Below, piece by piece: positions 33,412 through 56,543 of a stretch of 64,000 nucleotides of DNA. Below the pieces are notes generated by a model that made no database searches, was not told the DNA's origin, and saw nothing but the letters and a program-made list of their open reading frames with translations. Origin of the DNA: a virus; the IMG/VR virus record IMGVR_UViG_3300036774_000066, positions 64,001 to 128,000 of that record. One strand, written 5' to 3'. A program made the position numbers and the translations under genes. Positions within the stretch are counted from its first letter, which is position 1, and every line of letters begins with the position of its first letter.

Positions 33412-33849
33412 CTATCCCTTTGAAAAATCCGTGAGTTCCCCTACCCTCTTGACAAGTCTATCCTTGATCGTCGGGGCTTTCTTCAGTCGCGGATTCTTGT
33501 CATTGACCTCAATATACCCCTGCCGATTCTCAATGTGCTTCCACACCTCGCATCTTTGCAGATGCATAAGAAACGGCACAATGGCTGTGAATCTGCGAGT
33601 TACCCGGTCTTCCTGCTCTGTAAAGTCCAAGAAGGAAGTTGTACTCCGAAACGTGTACTTCGTAGACCGCATCCAGAAGCCTCCATTGGGCATCCTCTCA
33701 AGCACAAGAGTAATAGGCTTTCCTCCTATGGCTCGAAAAAGATGTATGTCTTCCCCCTTGACTGCGACCTGAAAGTAACCCTCCCCAATCAATCCGGCAA
33801 CTGCCGCCTTCGTTGACATACGCTTAACAACAGACTTAGCAGCACTCAT
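33412..33849 (-). CDS. Hypothetical protein
   Basis: ORF. Confidence 0.6.
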   Translation of the reverse strand: MSAAKSVVKRMSTKAAVAGLIGEGYFQVAVKGEDIHLFRAIGGKPITLVLERMPNGGFWMRSTKYTFRSTTSFLDFTEQEDRVTRRFTAIVPFLMHLQRCEVWKHIENRQGYIEVNDKNPRLKKAPTIKDRLVKRVGELTDFSKG

Positions 33850-34247
33850 TTTGTCAACCTCCTTACTTCAACACGTTTAGGTTTAATCAACTCCTCCACC
33901 TCAAGATGTATGCTACATGCCTTGTTTACAGCAGATACAAGTTCCTTCACCTGATTGTAACATGCAACATTTTCAGATACCCATATTGACGTATAAACTC
34001 TAATCCTGCTCCTCTTCTCCTTTGTCTCTCCCTCAGACTCCGCTGCATCTCTCTTGGAAAATCCCAATTTCTTTCTCCGTTTGTAAAACAAACTCATGTC
34101 CAACTTGAACTTTGGATGCGCCTCCTCAAACTGTGTAAAAGTAGCAGTAGGATTTTCTCTCAAAAAACGATCTACAAGACCGTAATTGATCTTCCTACGC
34201 TTCTTTACTTCCGATACACCTAACTCAGCCACAGCGTCCGTTTCCAT
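33846..34247 (-). CDS. Basic hypothetical protein (possible DNA-binding)
   Basis: K/R-rich; FL.ENP.A...YKRRKKLG. Confidence 0.55.
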   Translation of the reverse strand: METDAVAELGVSEVKKRRKINYGLVDRFLRENPTATFTQFEEAHPKFKLDMSLFYKRRKKLGFSKRDAAESEGETKEKRSRIRVYTSIWVSENVACYNQVKELVSAVNKACSIHLEVEELIKPKRVEVRRLTK

Positions 34248-35153: not shown

Positions 35154-35507
35154 TTATCCGTTAATGGGGAAAAACGGCTCGTCACACTGCTCCAAACGTA
35201 CTTCCTCTGAAAGTGACCTCTGATACTTCTTACAAAAGCCAATACACCCTTCCTCAAGTGGAACATCCAAGTAAGTACACCCTTTACACGAAACACTCTC
35301 CACCTTGTAGTATTTGTATCCCCGTGCTATTCGCTTGGAGAAAAACGACCCGACAGAAGGTGCCGCCATCCACTCCTTCACTACCTCTTCCGAAACATCA
35401 TGATACTCATATAACGATCCGTTTTTGAACTTGACCTGAAGAACTTTTTTCGCAGGATTATGTGCGTATGCCTCAATGTTGGAAGAAGTAACCGGACTCA
35501 GCTTCAT
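35154..35507 (-). CDS. KTSC-domain protein with C-terminal Cys cluster
   Basis: VTSSNI.......L.V.F.NGS.YEY..V....W..A.SVGSFF...I. Confidence 0.88.
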   Translation of the reverse strand: MKLSPVTSSNIEAYAHNPAKKVLQVKFKNGSLYEYHDVSEEVVKEWMAAPSVGSFFSKRIARGYKYYKVESVSCKGCTYLDVPLEEGCIGFCKKYQRSLSEEVRLEQCDEPFFPING

Positions 35508-35534
35508 TTTCTCTCCTTTTATGGGTTCCCTTGA

Positions 35535-35556
35535 TAATACGTAAAAACACAAAAAA
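35535..35556 (-). promoter_or_regulatory. Putative phage-sigma promoter TTTT-N11-CGTATTA
   Basis: Upstream of KTSC gene. Confidence 0.55.
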
Positions 35557-35582
35557 GGGGAAGAGCTTTCACTCCTCCCCTC
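35551..35582 (-). terminator. Intrinsic terminator ending candidate RNA D
   Basis: AGGGGAGGAGT-GAAA-GCTCTTCCCCT plus TTTTT. Confidence 0.8.
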
Positions 35583-35790
35583 CGGTCAAGCTGCCGTGCG
35601 ACAAAGCCGCTGCTCTACTTTGCCGCGTTACCCCACTACGGGCCTACACTTTTGTTGATAGAGCGTAGTGGCTCCACCCTTTTGTGTGCAGGGGCGAGAT
35701 GTTGGTGCCCTGTAAGTTTCGGCAACTTTCTCTAACGAACCGGGCATCCTTCGGGAAAACCCCGTAAGGCACGCGCTGGTCCGCTCTCTG
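35551..35790 (-). ncRNA. Candidate stand-alone ~235-nt structured RNA D
   Basis: Flanked by promoter motif and terminator; GC-rich; stems GCGGACC/GGTTCGT, CGGG/CCCG, AAGTTGCCG/CGGCAGCTT, CCACTACG/CGTAGTGG, GCGGCAAAG/CTTTGTCGC. Confidence 0.7.
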
Positions 35791-35791
35791 T

Positions 35792-35813
35792 TAATACGCT
35801 GACCTCTCCAAAA
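35792..35813 (-). promoter_or_regulatory. Putative phage-sigma promoter TTTT-N11-CGTATTA
   Basis: Directly upstream of RNA D. Confidence 0.6.
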
Positions 35814-35817
35814 ATCA

Positions 35818-36219
35818 TCAGGACTTAGGCTTGTACTTTCGCAACAGACGACCATTACAATACGTCCCGGCTTTGTCCCATTGCCAAGGAGCATACCGAA
35901 ATACTGCTACCTCAACAGAATCCCCCTTCACCACATTGGCAAACTGACGGTCCTCGGAAGAAAAAGTCACGACCTCGTTGCCAATGTCAAGATCAACTGC
36001 AAAGGAAAATGTACCAGAGGGAAGCCCACCACCGGCACTACGCCCGGCAACCACAGACATACTCATGTTGGAACACGCCGTTACCTTTCCGATAAACTCC
36101 TTCCGAGAAAAGAACTTGTACCCCGCAGTATAGATAAGACTCCCGATGATTCCCACGATCACGACCACAACCATCAACTCAATGAGAGTGAAACCACGCA
36201 ACCACTTCTTCTGAAACAC
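35818..36219 (-). CDS. Type IV prepilin-like protein (N-terminal cleavage/methylation motif)
   Basis: GTG 36219 with GGGAG RBS; MFQKKWLRG|FTLIELMVVVVIVGII. Confidence 0.8.
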   Translation of the reverse strand: MFQKKWLRGFTLIELMVVVVIVGIIGSLIYTAGYKFFSRKEFIGKVTACSNMSMSVVAGRSAGGGLPSGTFSFAVDLDIGNEVVTFSSEDRQFANVVKGDSVEVAVFRYAPWQWDKAGTYCNGRLLRKYKPKS

Positions 36220-36243
36220 AACAGGCTCCCTTCTGTAAATGTG

Positions 36244-36331
36244 AAAAGGTACAAGGATAACTGGTTTTCGTGGCACACACCACGCGGGGAATCCCGTAAC
36301 CGCCTATTAGCCCTTCGCTATCCCTGTACCC
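36244..36331 (-). ncRNA. Candidate structured RNA E (14-bp helix plus U-tract enclosing a 3-way junction)
   Basis: GGTACAGGGATAGC/GTTATCCTTGTACC plus TTTT; inner GGTT/AACC, CGGG/CCCG, CGTGGT/GCCACG. Confidence 0.55.
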
Positions 36332-36342
36332 AAAAATCCTTC

Positions 36343-36561
36343 TTACAACCTGATTCCAAGGTAAGACATACGTACCCGCCACGATTTATGAAAAGCCTGT
36401 AGAAAAGTCTTTGCAAGGAAGGATGACCCGGTAAGCATGTCTATCAATACGTGGGAATCGGGAATATGCTTTAGACCTTCCTGCTTTCCCCTGTACTCAG
36501 ATAGAAGCAAAACGGAAATCACATCCCAACGATGAAGTTTTCTTTTCTTTCGTCTTCTCAT
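36343..36561 (-). CDS. Hypothetical protein
   Basis: GAGG RBS. Confidence 0.5.
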   Translation of the reverse strand: MRRRKKRKLHRWDVISVLLLSEYRGKQEGLKHIPDSHVLIDMLTGSSFLAKTFLQAFHKSWRVRMSYLGIRL

Positions 36562-36569
36562 TCATTACC

Positions 36570-36779
36570 TCAATCAACTATGGCATTCGCAGCATTCTCC
36601 ATCCTCTGTCGCAAAGAACTCTCCCCTGACAACCGAGTCACTCTCTTGACTGCATCGGAATATTCCTCTCCATCTCCAGCAACACGGTCTTTCCAACAAT
36701 CAAGATTCTCCCCACGAACAATCTCCCTGAGTCGGGCATCACACCGCATATTACCACAAGTTGAACATGACTTTTTCAT
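36570..36779 (-). CDS. Hypothetical protein
   Basis: GAGG RBS; CSTCG. Confidence 0.55.
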   Translation of the reverse strand: MKKSCSTCGNMRCDARLREIVRGENLDCWKDRVAGDGEEYSDAVKRVTRLSGESSLRQRMENAANAIVD

Positions 36780-36788
36780 AGACTTACC

Positions 36789-37334
36789 TCACGACCGCAC
36801 GTTAAGGTCAAAGGTATACTGCAACTCAATTTCCTCTGCCTCTTTGTTAATCTTCTGCATCTCTGCAAGCGCAGCATTCCAGCGATCAACCAAGACGGAA
36901 GCCTTACTTGACTTATCCCCAAACAAGGGATTTTTGGGCTGGATTCCGTACTCCAAACGGTCAGCCGGAAGATCGTTCTGCAAGTACCCCTGATTGCTTT
37001 CAATGATCTTCTTGAGGTTGACAACAGGAGAGGAGTCATACCCAATGAGGAAGCTCAACGTGGGATTCTTGCCGGAGTCCGAAATCCTTACCTCGATGTT
37101 GTACATGCCATAGTTAAATGTATACCGGACAGGCATGGAAGAAAGACCCTCCTTGTCAAGCGAGTCCCGAACCTTTCCCTCAAGCCGTTTCGTGATCTTC
37201 TTGCCGTCTTCCGATTCCAGCCCGGCAATCACGGCACGGCACACCTTGGAACTCAGTCGGTTCCACTCAATACGTTCCTTAGACTCTTCAACAATCTTTT
37301 CCAACACCAGCGGCTTAACAAACCCGATTGACAT
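36789..37334 (-). CDS. Hypothetical protein
   Basis: GGAGG RBS before ATG 37334. Confidence 0.6.
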   Translation of the reverse strand: MSIGFVKPLVLEKIVEESKERIEWNRLSSKVCRAVIAGLESEDGKKITKRLEGKVRDSLDKEGLSSMPVRYTFNYGMYNIEVRISDSGKNPTLSFLIGYDSSPVVNLKKIIESNQGYLQNDLPADRLEYGIQPKNPLFGDKSSKASVLVDRWNAALAEMQKINKEAEEIELQYTFDLNVRS

Positions 37335-37335
37335 A

Positions 37336-37587
37336 TCAGCCTCCCACCCCAACGGGGTAATAGTATTTAAGATACACCTCTTGGAGAATTTCAAAAGGAA
37401 CTTCCCCGCACTTCGGACAGGCATACTTCGCTGCCTCTGCCCGGAAAGCATCACCCTGTTTAATTGCATTCGCTATCAAAGAACACGCTTGCGCCTCTTC
37501 CTTCTCTCCACACATTTCCCAAAGGGCCGCAGCTTCGGCCCACTGATTCATCCGCTCTTTCTCTCTTGCTTTCTGCCGAATCATCAT
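37336..37587 (-). CDS. Hypothetical protein
   Basis: GGAGG RBS; first gene after promoter. Confidence 0.6.
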   Translation of the reverse strand: MMIRQKAREKERMNQWAEAAALWEMCGEKEEAQACSLIANAIKQGDAFRAEAAKYACPKCGEVPFEILQEVYLKYYYPVGVGG

Positions 37588-37603
37588 ACTGACCTCCACT
37601 CTT

Positions 37604-37632
37604 AATATACAACAACTACAAGGAAAAGTCAA
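37604..37632 (-). promoter_or_regulatory. Sigma70-type early promoter
   Basis: TTGACT-17-TATATT; IHF-like AATCAATGACTTA at 37663-37675. Confidence 0.8.
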
Positions 37633-37680
37633 CAAAAATATTCAAAAACTTTTAATTCCTTGTAAGTCATTGATTTTCAA

Positions 37681-37752
37681 TCAGTCCTTTGCCCCTGAAA
37701 GTATCCTGAAAAAAGCCATCACCGCGAGGATTATCACAATCAGCGTCAGCAT
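37681..37752 (-). CDS. 23-aa hydrophobic peptide (MLTLIVIILAVMAFFRILSGAKD)
   Basis: AAAGGGG RBS; sits alone between a terminator and a promoter. Confidence 0.45.
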   Translation of the reverse strand: MLTLIVIILAVMAFFRILSGAKD

Positions 37753-37816
37753 ACAAGCCCCTTTCTTTTAGTTGTTTCTCTGTCTCCAATATATAATATC
37801 GCAAATCTCATGCCCC

Positions 37817-37856
37817 AAAAAGAAAACCCTCAAAACAAGCTAATTTTGAGGGTTTC
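37817..37856 (-). terminator. Intrinsic terminator
   Basis: AAACCCTCAAAA-loop-TTTTGAGGGTTT plus TCTTTTT. Confidence 0.8.
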
Positions 37857-37915
37857 CTTAAAACCTGTAGACTTATCTCACATAACCCCCACAGAAGGAG
37901 AAAAGAACTCTCTCG

Positions 37916-38692
37916 TCACTCGCTCAATGTTTTGTGGATCGTCCAAAAGTCATCTGACAAATTCCGATCTGCGAGATAGTCATACGGAATTGTAAAATGC
38001 CCTGTCATTCCCCACGTCGCACCCCACGAGTTACGGACCAAAAACCGCTTCTGAGTATCATCATAGCCTACACACAGCACGGCATGACCTCCAAGAACCT
38101 GCTCACCAGACTTAGGCATATCCACAATACCCGTCTGTGCAACATACGAACCCTCAAAACTCTCATACACGGTAAACCCAAAAACAAAAGGATACCCCAA
38201 GGATAACTGAGTTCGCATGTCGTCAACTGTATTAAGACGGGTATAACTTAACGAATCAGCAATCTTATGTGGGGAAGCTGCTGCATAGCAAGACAATGAA
38301 GGCTTCTTTGTAAACCTTGAAATAATATACGGCCACATACTCTCAGGGCACACCCCCAAAGAAAACAAAGTCTTCACCCCGTCTCGTATCGCAGCACCGG
38401 AGTCATACCTGACAGTACCTTCAAGTTTCCTTTCGTTATAGTAGATAAAAAGACGACTGAACATTATTGGAGTCTTCTTATCCTTCAAGTCAAGAAACTC
38501 GATTGCAGCAGAAAGGGCATTGGCAGTACATGATCCCAACTGTCCCTGATCGTAAACAGGAGGACAAAAAGTTCTCAAATCTACCACAGGGGGAAGGGAA
38601 GGAATACTCTTTTTGTAAACATGGTCGCGTCTGTCAGGTAAATCCGGCTTCCATCCGTATCTACTCATCTCAGGCTTTGAAAAAATCCACAT
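37916..38692 (-). CDS. C1 family (papain-like) cysteine peptidase
   Basis: DQGQLGSCTANA, SRLFIYY, GGHAV, RNSWG..WG. Confidence 0.93.
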   Translation of the reverse strand: MWIFSKPEMSRYGWKPDLPDRRDHVYKKSIPSLPPVVDLRTFCPPVYDQGQLGSCTANALSAAIEFLDLKDKKTPIMFSRLFIYYNERKLEGTVRYDSGAAIRDGVKTLFSLGVCPESMWPYIISRFTKKPSLSCYAAASPHKIADSLSYTRLNTVDDMRTQLSLGYPFVFGFTVYESFEGSYVAQTGIVDMPKSGEQVLGGHAVLCVGYDDTQKRFLVRNSWGATWGMTGHFTIPYDYLADRNLSDDFWTIHKTLSE

Positions 38693-38718
38693 AACTCCTC
38701 CTCTGTTAAAGTATAGAG

Positions 38719-39216
38719 TCAAGCTGGCTGAACTGAGTCCAACGAATCCACCCGAAATTCAGCATCGTCATAATGGATCAAAAAATATCGGTTACACCCG
38801 GCATTGACCTCCCTAACCGCGAGATTCTGAAACATCACAATATCCCCCACATTTACGTCAGGACGGCTGTAATTCCGACCCTTGGGAACATCAATCACCT
38901 GTTGACCAAAGCTGTTCCTACGCCCTCCCCCGGATGACCAATACACCGATTTCTCTCCAAGCCGCACAACCTTACCTATCCTCCACACACGCCAACACGT
39001 CGCCGGAATAATCAATCCAACTTTAGACTTTACTTCCTGCACAAGTGGCTCGACCATGATATAAGGCCCGATGATCGTCAACATATCGGCAACAATCAAC
39101 TCTCGACCACAACCCATACATCTACGACTCTCCCGTGCCTCTAAGACTTTTCCCTCGTCAACATCTTTCCATTCCCGTGTCTTGAGACAAAATTGGCAAG
39201 CATACGGCTCACTCAT
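38719..39216 (-). CDS. GroES/Cpn10-like co-chaperonin with N-terminal Zn finger
   Basis: IMVEP....SKVGLIIP, GKVVRLG, DVNVGDIVMF, YFLI..DD; two CxxC at N-terminus. Confidence 0.72.
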   Translation of the reverse strand: MSEPYACQFCLKTREWKDVDEGKVLEARESRRCMGCGRELIVADMLTIIGPYIMVEPLVQEVKSKVGLIIPATCWRVWRIGKVVRLGEKSVYWSSGGGRRNSFGQQVIDVPKGRNYSRPDVNVGDIVMFQNLAVREVNAGCNRYFLIHYDDAEFRVDSLDSVQPA

Positions 39217-51016: not shown

Positions 51017-51544
51017 TTAAGCTGAAATAGGTGGAGAATCTTGAGGAGACTCAGAAGAATCTTCTTTACTCTGCACCGGAAAAGGTAATTCCTTTTCAGA
51101 CTTTTCAGGATCACCTATGTAACCCTCCGTTGCCTTTCTCGTCTCCCTTCGTACAATATCCAACTTCTCCACAACACTGTCAATTGCCTTGACAATGCCA
51201 GGATTATCTATCTCTCCGCTCAAAATTGTATCCCCAACTTCTCCAACGATCAAGTCACACCCTGCATCGGAAAGAGCCTTGCACAGCATCTTAAATTCAA
51301 TGCTGAATCTCTCCTTCTCAGGATTATCCGTAGGATTATCGTTCTTAAAAAGCTGCTGTCGCAAAAAGACCTTCACAGCCTGACCAACAGCACAAGTAAA
51401 CCGCATCTCACCAATGACCTTCGTTCCCTCCGGCAAAACCGGAGCCTCCTGTGGAGAAGGCTGAAAAAACCGAATGCGATGAAACACAGTGTGCTTGGTG
51501 ACAGCACGCTCAAACTCAGAAAACTTCACATACGAATGAATCAT
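51017..51544 (-). CDS. Hypothetical protein (monocistronic)
   Basis: GGAGG RBS; own promoter motif and terminator. Confidence 0.65.
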   Translation of the reverse strand: MIHSYVKFSEFERAVTKHTVFHRIRFFQPSPQEAPVLPEGTKVIGEMRFTCAVGQAVKVFLRQQLFKNDNPTDNPEKERFSIEFKMLCKALSDAGCDLIVGEVGDTILSGEIDNPGIVKAIDSVVEKLDIVRRETRKATEGYIGDPEKSEKELPFPVQSKEDSSESPQDSPPISA

Positions 51545-51566: not shown

Positions 51567-51588
51567 TAATACGACCAAAGCTAAAAAA
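51567..51588 (-). promoter_or_regulatory. Putative phage-sigma promoter TTTT-N11-CGTATTA
   Basis: Motif copy at structural/replication boundary. Confidence 0.6.
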
Positions 51589-55700: not shown

Positions 55701-56543
55701 CCGTATCCTATATCTCACCTGAATGTACTTTCCTGTTACTCTGTCAACATAGATAGTTCCAACCACAGAAGGATGTGTCGGGTCAAGAGTCCCGTAAACA
55801 GTTCCACTCACGTAAGGATAGTCTACATTGGTAATTGTTGTCGGAGCAGTATCATCCGGTAAATTACTTGCAGGTCCATACTGAGTATTTCCGTAGTAGA
55901 AAAACTTGGAAGTTGACAAATCTATTCTCTCCCGCCACACTTCCAAAAATGCCATATCCTGTCTTTTACCAAACACAGGAGCATCAGGAAATCTAATAGT
56001 AATATCCGGCCTACTCCCATCAAAAGAATTAGAAGTCAAGACAAGCTGATACCCGTTCACAAGAACAACAACATCTGTACCATTTGACTTAATGCGAACA
56101 CTATTATCTACCAAACCTCCCTTATCACAAACAAGATCACCAGGGGATAGCATACTCTCCAAGTCAGTTCCTACAGTAAATTCCTTTACATCCCCAGTAT
56201 TTCCAGAAAGAAATCCAGAGGCAGCAATACTTCTTCTGTAAAGAGCATCCCTCTCAATAGAAGAAAGACCTCCAAAACTATAATCCACTGTGTCAAGATA
56301 CCCAAGTATGTCATCCACCTTCTTAGCAACAAAAGAGTCACGAGCACCAAGACTCTGAAATACGGGCTTCTCCGCAGGCGCGTACACGGGAGTCGTCGTA
56401 TTCCAATACGATATGTCAAACACCGCATCAGGCTTAAAAGAATCCCCCCAATTCAAGTAAGAATTTGGGTCAGGAGGATTATTCAAGTTGTTCCACGAAG
56501 GAAATCCCAAGTCATCACGAATTTTAGTGATTCCAGTAGCCAT
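52794..56543 (-). CDS. Large tail/baseplate protein with beta-propeller (Asp-box-like) region
   Basis: RQDMAFLEVW, RYRIRV, CIPICFVHRRN, RPD...DMRH; STDGVNW, SADGVVW, STTGIYW repeats. Confidence 0.65.
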   Translation of the reverse strand: MATGITKIRDDLGFPSWNNLNNPPDPNSYLNWGDSFKPDAVFDISYWNTTTPVYAPAEKPVFQSLGARDSFVAKKVDDILGYLDTVDYSFGGLSSIERDALYRRSIAASGFLSGNTGDVKEFTVGTDLESMLSPGDLVCDKGGLVDNSVRIKSNGTDVVVLVNGYQLVLTSNSFDGSRPDITIRFPDAPVFGKRQDMAFLEVWRERIDLSTSKFFYYGNTQYGPASNLPDDTAPTTITNVDYPYVSGTVYGTLDPTHPSVVGTIYVDRVTGKYIQVRYRIRVFSLDFEDSTTNSVIPKNILTNAALFAQGKRSSDSSTANFVIVSSDYGLFAASGDTSLGVGGLAWCIPICFVHRRNQAAFSEANINGGSSRPDLLSFPIIAERDVMDMRHTVTLGTFDWEEVYQKTMKKLMGGSLSTNWYSQYSLPDGVVSTQLDIYGNRHFEGMGIRNSTLAGTQLKYKIITNNGIPAAPDGIRQVWSDAEESQAAICFISDIDDPGNLCIPTGFFEYNQIGHWVKADLQMLPSWNGGAGDHVVFTGMVPKFRWASNGATVNMSWTSLTGAAIQGYVQSGNIGSYEGYSVHSHDGMVGEVYIKFSRGSSFLDRTPVWGKARNFSMTSNGTPLMEAFGYNQYEPLGFDEQTRRIHTFAFISDQIALDGNPTTPVTLPQSEFRPFGSCMRDSDGKYKVWVANTATGGFDLYSSTDLNSFSSPVPCAGLPDCGDMNNVNGISVVKAAVVTMKYYLFATNLLHQLNMYVSTDGVNWTGPTLCTGLTGHGTNIIKACVMFDTGAGTSLPTPRFKMWFINDSDAIVTYAESADGVVWDNIALTPVTDTDILTGSDLPTEISVIMEAECGFGTYKVWLTVSEDYDGSRGYGPKDHLKVLYGFSTTGIYWMMSDIPRWSEDLHYSQYWRKDIPDSACPYLENSDETVNHPYFLTICNIFKDDKVYRTYGIKSYLGNFGSSTVVTSLLCKIVLGMVDRNGSGTSQNAMYQGRGAMDHALRYDDAIGNLPDDTLVFYTEYAPRVHAGGACFTLVGGPWVSESKVVYVPENPVLVSTLGSGYKNMRVIPSRGVINLLDQLNGMFNHPLHNYIARAVIPFDGRAVSAAFPSHEYSLGSAVQFVRAMPCDVYKDRGSLLEYFYSGHFNYDIRHAIAFSFEYLVLQQGIFESNNTAIGQHIHSEAVDFETYFPLGFGDSVFAALFSVSKMSGGQIAIMLSFGDSLPTYRSYSCDAFLSAMVPCGRYLAKMK

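Follow-up and report, generated by a model that had tools for sequence, protein, structure and literature searches.

The locus and its surroundings

The window, that is the whole stretch of 64,000 nucleotides analysed here, corresponds to bases 64001-128000 of a 156.6-kb IMG/VR virus record, an uncultured phage of ~157 kb rated 93% complete. Nearly all genes are carried by the minus strand, with a plus-strand GC skew of about -0.26, and they encode a family-A DNA polymerase, DnaB-like and SNF2-type helicases, a UvsX-like recombinase, a ligase and baseplate-wedge proteins. The element described here, RNA D, lies within the 310 nt that separate a pilin-like gene (35818-36219) from a KTSC gene (35154-35507). 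Its features are listed below from 5' to 3'; helices and hairpins are those of the predicted fold, and 'the relative' is a related phage, described in the next section, that carries a homologue.

35818..36219, minus strand: pilin-like gene with an N-terminal methylation motif (PF07963, E 2.2e-7); stop codon at 35820-35818
35792..35814, minus strand: promoter-like motif TTTTTG-N10-CGTATTA, beginning 4 nt past the pilin-like stop codon; TTTTTG at 35814-35809, CGTATTA at 35798-35792
35734..35785, minus strand: imperfect 5' hairpin of ~52 nt, outside the conserved core; MFE and centroid structures agree on it, and the relative has no clear counterpart
35720..35728, minus strand: 5' strand of the predicted closing helix, AAGUUGCCG, 9 bp, pairing with 35588-35596; the relative's closing helix differs in sequence
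35692..35710, minus strand: predicted hairpin Ha, GGGC / 11-nt loop ACCAACAUCUC / GCCC; the relative has a longer hairpin at this place
35644..35691, minus strand: predicted hairpin Hb, with a 6-bp stem, an A-rich 7x7 internal loop (ACAAAAG/AACAAAA), an 8-bp stem and the loop CACUAC (35665-35670)
35630..35643, minus strand: predicted hairpin Hc, with a 4-bp stem and the loop GUAGUG (35634-35639), fully complementary to the Hb loop
35598..35626, minus strand: predicted hairpin Hd, with a 10-bp stem, 3 nt past Hc and 1 nt ahead of the closing helix
35588..35596, minus strand: 3' strand of the predicted closing helix, CGGCAGCUU
35548..35583, minus strand: intrinsic terminator GGAGGGGAGGAGU-GAAA-GCUCUUCCCCU followed by U6, with a 13-bp GC-rich stem and a GAAA loop (hairpin 35554-35583), also found by a terminator scan
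35535..35556, minus strand: second promoter-like motif, TTTTTTGTG-N6-CGTATTA, downstream of the terminator and ahead of the KTSC ribosome-binding site; CGTATTA at 35541-35535
35154..35507, minus strand: KTSC gene, 117 aa, with a C-terminal four-Cys tail (PF13619, E 5.6e-20), the conserved 3' neighbour of RNA D; ATG at 35507

The ~205 nt between the first CGTATTA and the terminator are GC-rich and hold no credible ORF. The open frames of the gap are an 88-aa frame starting inside the pilin gene, a 42-aa GTG frame without a Shine-Dalgarno sequence and a TTG frame of 29 codons that begins in the closing helix. No plausible ORF start was found in the gap and none of the frames is conserved in the relative, on which ground the TTG frame was rejected as a candidate gene. 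The GC skew of the RNA body is 0.04, versus ~0.26 in coding sequence. The initial annotation of this DNA had described a GC-rich stretch that lacks a credible ORF and ends in a GAAA-capped terminator, and the ORF check, the fold and the terminator scan uphold that description. A possible pairing of 35597-35609 with the pilin mRNA (35868-35880) was discarded because, as one of 19 inverted pairs of this kind, it does not exceed what chance would give, and conservation is lacking.

The Shine-Dalgarno sequence of the KTSC gene, AAAGGAGAG, comes after the second CGTATTA and ahead of the ATG. The assignment of this gene to the KTSC family, under the same motif as the RNA, had been made at the outset and is confirmed by the PF13619 match and by the CGTATTA at 35541-35535. 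KTSC is regarded as a nucleic-acid-binding domain and has been described as DNA-binding (PMC9503650). Related solved structures are 7x8c and 4rgi (KTSC alone) and 8wiv (KTSC fused to the HerA helicase C-terminus). A structure model of the window protein is confident for residues 1-70 only. The tail of this KTSC subfamily (window 35154-35507, minus strand) contains four invariant cysteines (C74, C77, C92 and C108) and has a zinc-ribbon-like look.

The surroundings of the gap are variable. Between a GroES-like gene and KTSC lies an island that spans 35818-38722 in the window and 14715-16662 in L025, the contig of the relative. In the window it contains a peptidase-like gene (37916-38722), a 226-aa ORF and the pilin-like gene, and in the relative unrelated small ORFs. 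The pilin-like gene is thus the 5' neighbour of the RNA in the window genome only, and it is absent at that position in the relative. Just upstream of its ribosome-binding site is another structured element, RNA E (window 36229-36331, minus strand), in which a 15-bp closing helix surrounds three small hairpins and is followed by a U-run (z -3.35); it looks like a branched intrinsic terminator. On the other side of KTSC, the window has a 194-aa gene; a short contig, L021, has a Dam-type methyltransferase gene (390-1256) there instead, flanked by KTSC and the homologue of 33846-34247.

Predicted fold and its counterpart in a related phage

The whole stretch folds with an MFE of -113.3 kcal/mol (z -5.2 to -5.31) and, minus the terminator, with -87.8 kcal/mol (z -4.32) and identical MFE and centroid structures. 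The genome has 35 intergenic gaps of at least 120 nt, two of which exceed 500 nt and were skipped; among the 33 scored on the gene strand, the RNA D gap has the best z-score, the lowest energy per nucleotide (-0.428) and the highest GC content (0.55 vs ~0.43). Its opposite strand reaches a z-score of only -0.88. The second most structured gap of the genome, at 143945-144080 of the record and hence outside the window, is 136 nt long with a GC content of 0.51, and its z-score is -4.7 for the gene strand and -0.9 for the opposite one.

According to the fold predictions, the core of RNA D (~145 nt, 35584-35728) is a five-way junction made of the closing helix and hairpins Ha to Hd, with the variable 5' hairpin ahead of it and the strong intrinsic terminator 4 nt behind. 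The initial annotation had proposed a 5' hairpin and a multibranch domain closed by AAGUUGCCG/CGGCAGCUU, both of which are recovered, with three hairpins inside the domain, where four are predicted. Neither of the two kissing pairs that it had suggested survives: CUCUA/UAGAG is not conserved in the relative, and ACAC/GUGU is merely part of a regular stem.

The relative was reached via its DNA polymerase (P0156), 73% identical to that of the window and encoded on contigs of 165-168 kb, and the RNA homologue via synteny. Over the 491 aligned bases (L025 16640-17130), L025 does not differ from L028, a locus of IMG/VR record G001; this record carries direct terminal repeats, and its completeness is rated at 100%. 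The relatives stem from JGI samples 3300032046, 3300031772 and 3300027896. The two phages share their gene order from the polymerase to the GroES-like gene, followed by the unrelated variable island, KTSC and further shared genes; the KTSC proteins are 49% identical. The adjacency of RNA and KTSC is thus kept in two phages although the flanks on both sides differ. The gap upstream of KTSC is 462 nt long in the relative and consists of two parts, a branched long helix and then the RNA D homologue. The former (L025 16664-16833, plus strand) measures 170 nt and combines a branched insert with a 21-bp closing helix and U6 (z -3.36). It directly follows a 173-aa gene, and 20 nt separate its end from the RNA D homologue; it is of RNA E-like design, without evident sequence similarity to RNA E. 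At L025 16841-16866 (plus strand) there is also a mini-ORF, namely a perfect Shine-Dalgarno GGAGGA, an AUG, three codons and a UGA, which overlaps the 5' strand of the relative's closing helix and has no counterpart in the window.

The MFE structure of the relative's RNA, computed independently, has the same helix order as the window RNA: closing helix, first hairpin, Hb, Hc, Hd and closing strand. Its Hb consists of a 5-bp stem, an A-rich 6x7 internal loop and an 8-11-bp stem (GGGCU / AACAAA / GUACAGGGAGC / GUUAU / GCUCUGUAC / CUAAAAA / AGCCC), and its Hc of a 4-bp stem with a 6-nt loop; Hd is longer than that of the window. The junction spacers are equal in both RNAs (Ha/Hb 0 nt, Hb/Hc 0 nt, Hc-Hd 3 nt and Hd-closing helix 1 nt), and an ACAUCU stretch near Ha is unpaired in both. 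Downstream of the relative's RNA come a 6-nt linker, a G-rich terminator, a T-run, CGTATTG, the ribosome-binding site and KTSC. The relative's core is not unusually stable (z -1.24).

The two RNAs are ~46% identical over 120 shared columns of a model-derived alignment (A9), in which 95.7% of the cells pair and 18 pairs, distributed over all seven helices, show double changes, figures that are inflated because the alignment was fitted to the structure. RNAalifold on both sequences gave 37 pairs, 16 of them compensatory. Hb shows five compensatory pairs and Hd four; the covariation rests on two distinct sequences, so these counts are few. The single-sequence model R1 scored 11.9 bits at the relative's locus and also 11.9 bits at a coding-region decoy in L025, so homology rests on synteny and architecture rather than on score.

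The Hb and Hc loops provide an independent test, because the kissing helix is not part of the fitted model. In the window, the loops CACUAC (35670-35665) and GUAGUG (35639-35634) are perfect complements and, with flanking bases, would form 8 bp (-13.6 kcal/mol). The corresponding loops of the relative are CGUUAU and GUAACG. All six pairs are kept, with A-U replaced by G-C and C-G by U-A in double changes, and another C-G by a U-G wobble. A 6-nt Watson-Crick match between loops arose in 1 of 600 shuffles of the window RNA, and adjacent loops with at least five Watson-Crick pairs in 6 of 600 shuffles of the relative's RNA.

Judged from the fold predictions and this comparison, the gap encodes a specifically folded RNA structure that is evolutionarily maintained and under selection. 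Rfam 15 gave no match in the window at the gathering score; at E<=10, the region 35300-36100 yielded four noise matches (snoRNAs, a lncRNA and Va-907), all far below gathering. ARAGORN found no tRNA or tmRNA genes in the window, in keeping with the lack of such hallmarks remarked on in the initial annotation, whose description of a non-coding, structured RNA of no described family, ending in an intrinsic terminator, also stands in the light of the fold, the Rfam searches and the covariation. RNA D is an undescribed family of which two members were found, those of the window and of G001. Both possess a closing helix, Hb with an A-rich internal loop, an adjacent 4-bp Hc whose loop is complementary to that of Hb, Hd, and a terminator upstream of KTSC.

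Promoter-like motif and distribution of the RNA

The gene strand of the genome contains CGTATTA 14 times and the opposite strand four times. Non-coding DNA, which makes up 8% of the genome, holds six or seven of the 14, each 8-10 nt past a T-run and 23-70 nt before a start codon. Occurrences of the bipartite motif, T-run(G/A)-N8-10-CGTATT(A/G), were noted at window positions 51573, 35798, 35541, 28900, 13426 and 12732 (minus strand) and, in the relative, at 56089 and 71576 of the reverse complement of G001, with orthologous positions kept in the two phages. For instance, TTTTTTA-N8-CGTATTA precedes the gene at 51017-51544 and its orthologue in G001, with differing flanks. The KTSC-proximal version, TTTTTTGTG-N6-8-CGTATT[AG], is conserved in the window, in L025 and in a third contig, L003, with different spacers. 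To judge from where it is conserved, the motif behaves as an expression signal. Its spacing does not appear to fit sigma-70, and it probably represents a class of promoter specific to the phage, present in few copies per genome. As it sits between the terminator and the KTSC ribosome-binding site in all three contigs, KTSC seems to have a start signal of its own.

The situation differs for the RNA itself. The initial annotation had given it its own promoter, and the full motif does precede it in the window; in the relative, only TTTTGGAG, the T-run/GGAG half, is kept, and GCTACTT stands where the window has CGTATTA. In the MFE structure of the relative, this GCTACTT segment supplies the 5' strand of the closing helix, an alternative closing helix being available downstream, and the relative's RNA is preceded by a terminator-like element. 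Therefore, the 5' end and the mode of transcription may differ between the two phages, or the RNA may in addition be produced as a 3' UTR. A stand-alone gene with its own promoter is plausible for the window genome, going by the motif, and is not a conserved property; nor is a discrete transcript with the window's 5' end a conserved feature, because the segment of the relative equivalent to CGTATTA pairs as closing helix.

Other KTSC loci were also considered. An exhaustive HMMER search with the KTSC protein retrieved two full-length relatives, on the short contigs L021, which begins at the KTSC gene and hence has no upstream sequence, and L022 (KTSC 47% identical), in which the upstream region is AT-rich, unstructured and without RNA D. 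In L003/L004 (KTSC 54% identical), KTSC is preceded by a structured stretch of ~115 nt (z -3.8), with a 9-bp closing helix, a very similar GAAA-capped terminator 4 nt further on and then the promoter motif. This stretch abuts the upstream stop codon, with no promoter motif before it. Its body could not be aligned with the window RNA by MAFFT or by either model (R1 and R2), and we treat it as analogous to RNA D; Rfam revealed nothing relevant on L003 and L022. G-rich terminators like that of the window come after the RNA in L025 and after the stretch in L003, a sequence type that is generic, since T7-like phages use it after the capsid gene.

RNA D is single-copy in the window genome and in G001. 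Model R2 picked up no copy in 12 further viral KTSC loci, nor in the ~1 Mb of loci taken from distant polymerase relatives. The same model detected only the two known members in five whole phage records, leaving three other large phage records without RNA D. Scans of IMG/VR with single KTSC, pilin-like and DNA-polymerase proteins returned nothing close, a word-index protein search with the 133-aa neighbour found no homologue locus, and a metagenome scan with the KTSC alignment gave only L022 again. Searching for the terminator sequence as a pattern retrieved only unrelated T7-like capsid terminators. A degenerate pattern based on Hb gave 25 matches in IMG/VR, of which only the known relative is real, and at least 120 matches in prokaryote genomes; in the first 100 of those loci, model R2 found nothing but local hairpin matches. 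Most KTSC genes are without such an RNA. The RNA-protein module suggested in the initial annotation finds co-occurrence in two phages, plus the analogous, unalignable element of L003, and none in L022 and the 12 viral KTSC loci.

Known RNAs and possible roles of RNA D

Among known systems, riboswitches offer a similar layout. The lysine riboswitch is a five-way junction with kissing loops, and its architecture (RF00168), P1 plus four hairpins, resembles that predicted in the window and in the relative. More generally, lysine and purine-type riboswitches have a P1-closed junction, a kiss between the loops of neighbouring hairpins and a terminator directly downstream, as predicted for RNA D. However, the kiss of the lysine riboswitch is between hairpins 1 and 2 (L2-L3) and that of RNA D between hairpins 2 and 3; there is no RF00168 match at E<=10, and the downstream gene is not one of lysine metabolism, KTSC being merely named after a LysRS C-terminal domain. 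Two other candidates were rejected. The T-box leader (RF00230) gave no match at E<=10, and the T-box-like GGGUGGAGCC is inside Hb, ~90 nt upstream of the terminator. A type III antitoxin RNA of the ToxI kind would have tandem direct repeats, and there are no tandem repeats in 35450-35900.

These likenesses raise the possibility that RNA D is a cis-acting leader of KTSC, a riboswitch or attenuator whose junction senses a metabolite or the KTSC protein and controls read-through of the terminator. Classic riboswitches place a structured domain ahead of a short linker, a strong terminator and the gene; this arrangement is kept in two phages, with an analogous form in L003, and in both RNAs a GCCCCU could pair with an AGGGG at the start of the terminator. 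That pairing, however, amounts to 5 bp and involves different structural positions in the two RNAs, while the sole long alternative pairing of the window, a 15-nt complementarity between 35673-35687 and the 3' strand of the terminator, is absent in L025, so that no conserved terminator/antiterminator switch was found. The terminators are 12-15 bp long and form in the MFE structure of every construct folded, no riboswitch family matches even at E<=10 and, unlike in riboswitches, a promoter-like motif separates terminator and ribosome-binding site in three contigs, which makes KTSC independent of read-through. We consider a leader function possible but unlikely, and favour a stable stand-alone structured RNA, acting in an RNP or as a self-pairing scaffold.

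It is more doubtful still that RNA D is a structure associated with the terminator of a 3' UTR, which would end transcripts, protect them from 3' exonucleases and do nothing more. Other elements that combine a branched long helix and a U-run are indeed found in the genome and in its relative, namely RNA E, the 170-nt element of L025 and those of further gaps; the structured stretch of L003 abuts a stop codon without a promoter motif, and the relative's RNA lacks the CGTATTA half. Nevertheless, protection does not require a five-way junction, fixed spacers, an A-rich loop and loops that covary at ~46% identity. Moreover, the promoter motif of the window is placed between the upstream stop codon and the RNA, and a terminator-like element already precedes the RNA of the relative. 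As for a decayed gene remnant, a small protein gene or a chance structure, GC-rich sequence does fold well and contain long open frames, and there are only two homologues, but the extreme strand-specific z-score, the lack of conservation of the frames, the compensatory changes in every helix and in the kissing pair, and the syntenic position make a non-functional sequence most improbable.

Discrete structured RNAs are known from other phages as well. The small stable RNAs C and D of T4 (species 1 and 2), like other small RNAs encoded by large virulent phages, are discrete, structured and non-coding and have no function assigned to them; for RNAs C and D we know of no model in Rfam. The two T4 RNAs belong to a tRNA cluster and are processed with the tRNAs, whereas the window has no tRNA genes, and RNA D has its own promoter motif and terminator. 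Phi29 pRNA (RF00044) and the self-assembling RNAs ROOL, GOLLD and OLE come from phages or are associated with them, are structured and have complementary loops that pair, as proposed for RNA D. In pRNA and in ROOL/GOLLD, the loop pairs are intermolecular and build rings or cages; the loops of RNA D are complementary and covarying, and would pair either within or between molecules. RNA D has no sequence or model similarity to any of these RNAs and is far smaller than ROOL and GOLLD. Phi29 is a podovirus, in contrast to the large phage of RNA D, with its T4-like replication and baseplate genes and family-A polymerase, and no link to packaging genes was seen. Some covarying 'tertiary' kissing contacts of ROOL and GOLLD proved to be intermolecular (bioRxiv 10.1101/2024.12.08.627333).

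Pairing of the Hb and Hc loops between molecules appears geometrically plausible for RNA D as well, because, with the predicted lengths of Hb (~14 bp plus the large internal loop) and Hc (4 bp), the RNA would have to bend sharply at the A-rich internal loop for a kiss within one molecule. By analogy, RNA D might self-assemble into dimers or rings, possibly decorated by KTSC, an idea to which we give only a slim chance.

We propose the following mechanism. In the window genome, the RNA would be transcribed from the TTTTTG-N10-CGTATTA promoter as a discrete RNA of ~235-245 nt, and it may additionally form the 3' end of the transcript of the pilin-like gene. It would act as a stable structured RNA and not as a switch. 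By pairing, the loops of Hb and Hc would either hold the RNA in a compact fold or join molecules hand in hand, and docking sites might be offered by the A-rich internal loop, which is conserved, and by the ACAUCU stretch left unpaired. The KTSC protein is the obvious candidate partner, because the RNA and the gene stay together while both flanks change. This neighbouring, zinc-ribbon-like protein, expressed from the same promoter class, would most likely join the RNA in a small RNP during infection. RNA and KTSC form a candidate module, linked by conserved adjacency. For the best explanation as a whole, i.e. a maintained folded RNA, made as a discrete transcript from its own promoter and forming an RNP with KTSC, we estimate a probability of about 50%.

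Only a few of the structured RNAs that phages encode have a known role, and large environmental phages are little explored in this respect. RNA D is compact (~150 nt), small enough for direct structural and biochemical work. KTSC is a widespread domain, thought to bind nucleic acid, without a defined function, and if the RNP is real, RNA D would give KTSC a first concrete ligand. Should the loops pair between molecules, RNA D would represent a new natural self-assembling RNA, in a lineage without a known RNA machine of that kind.
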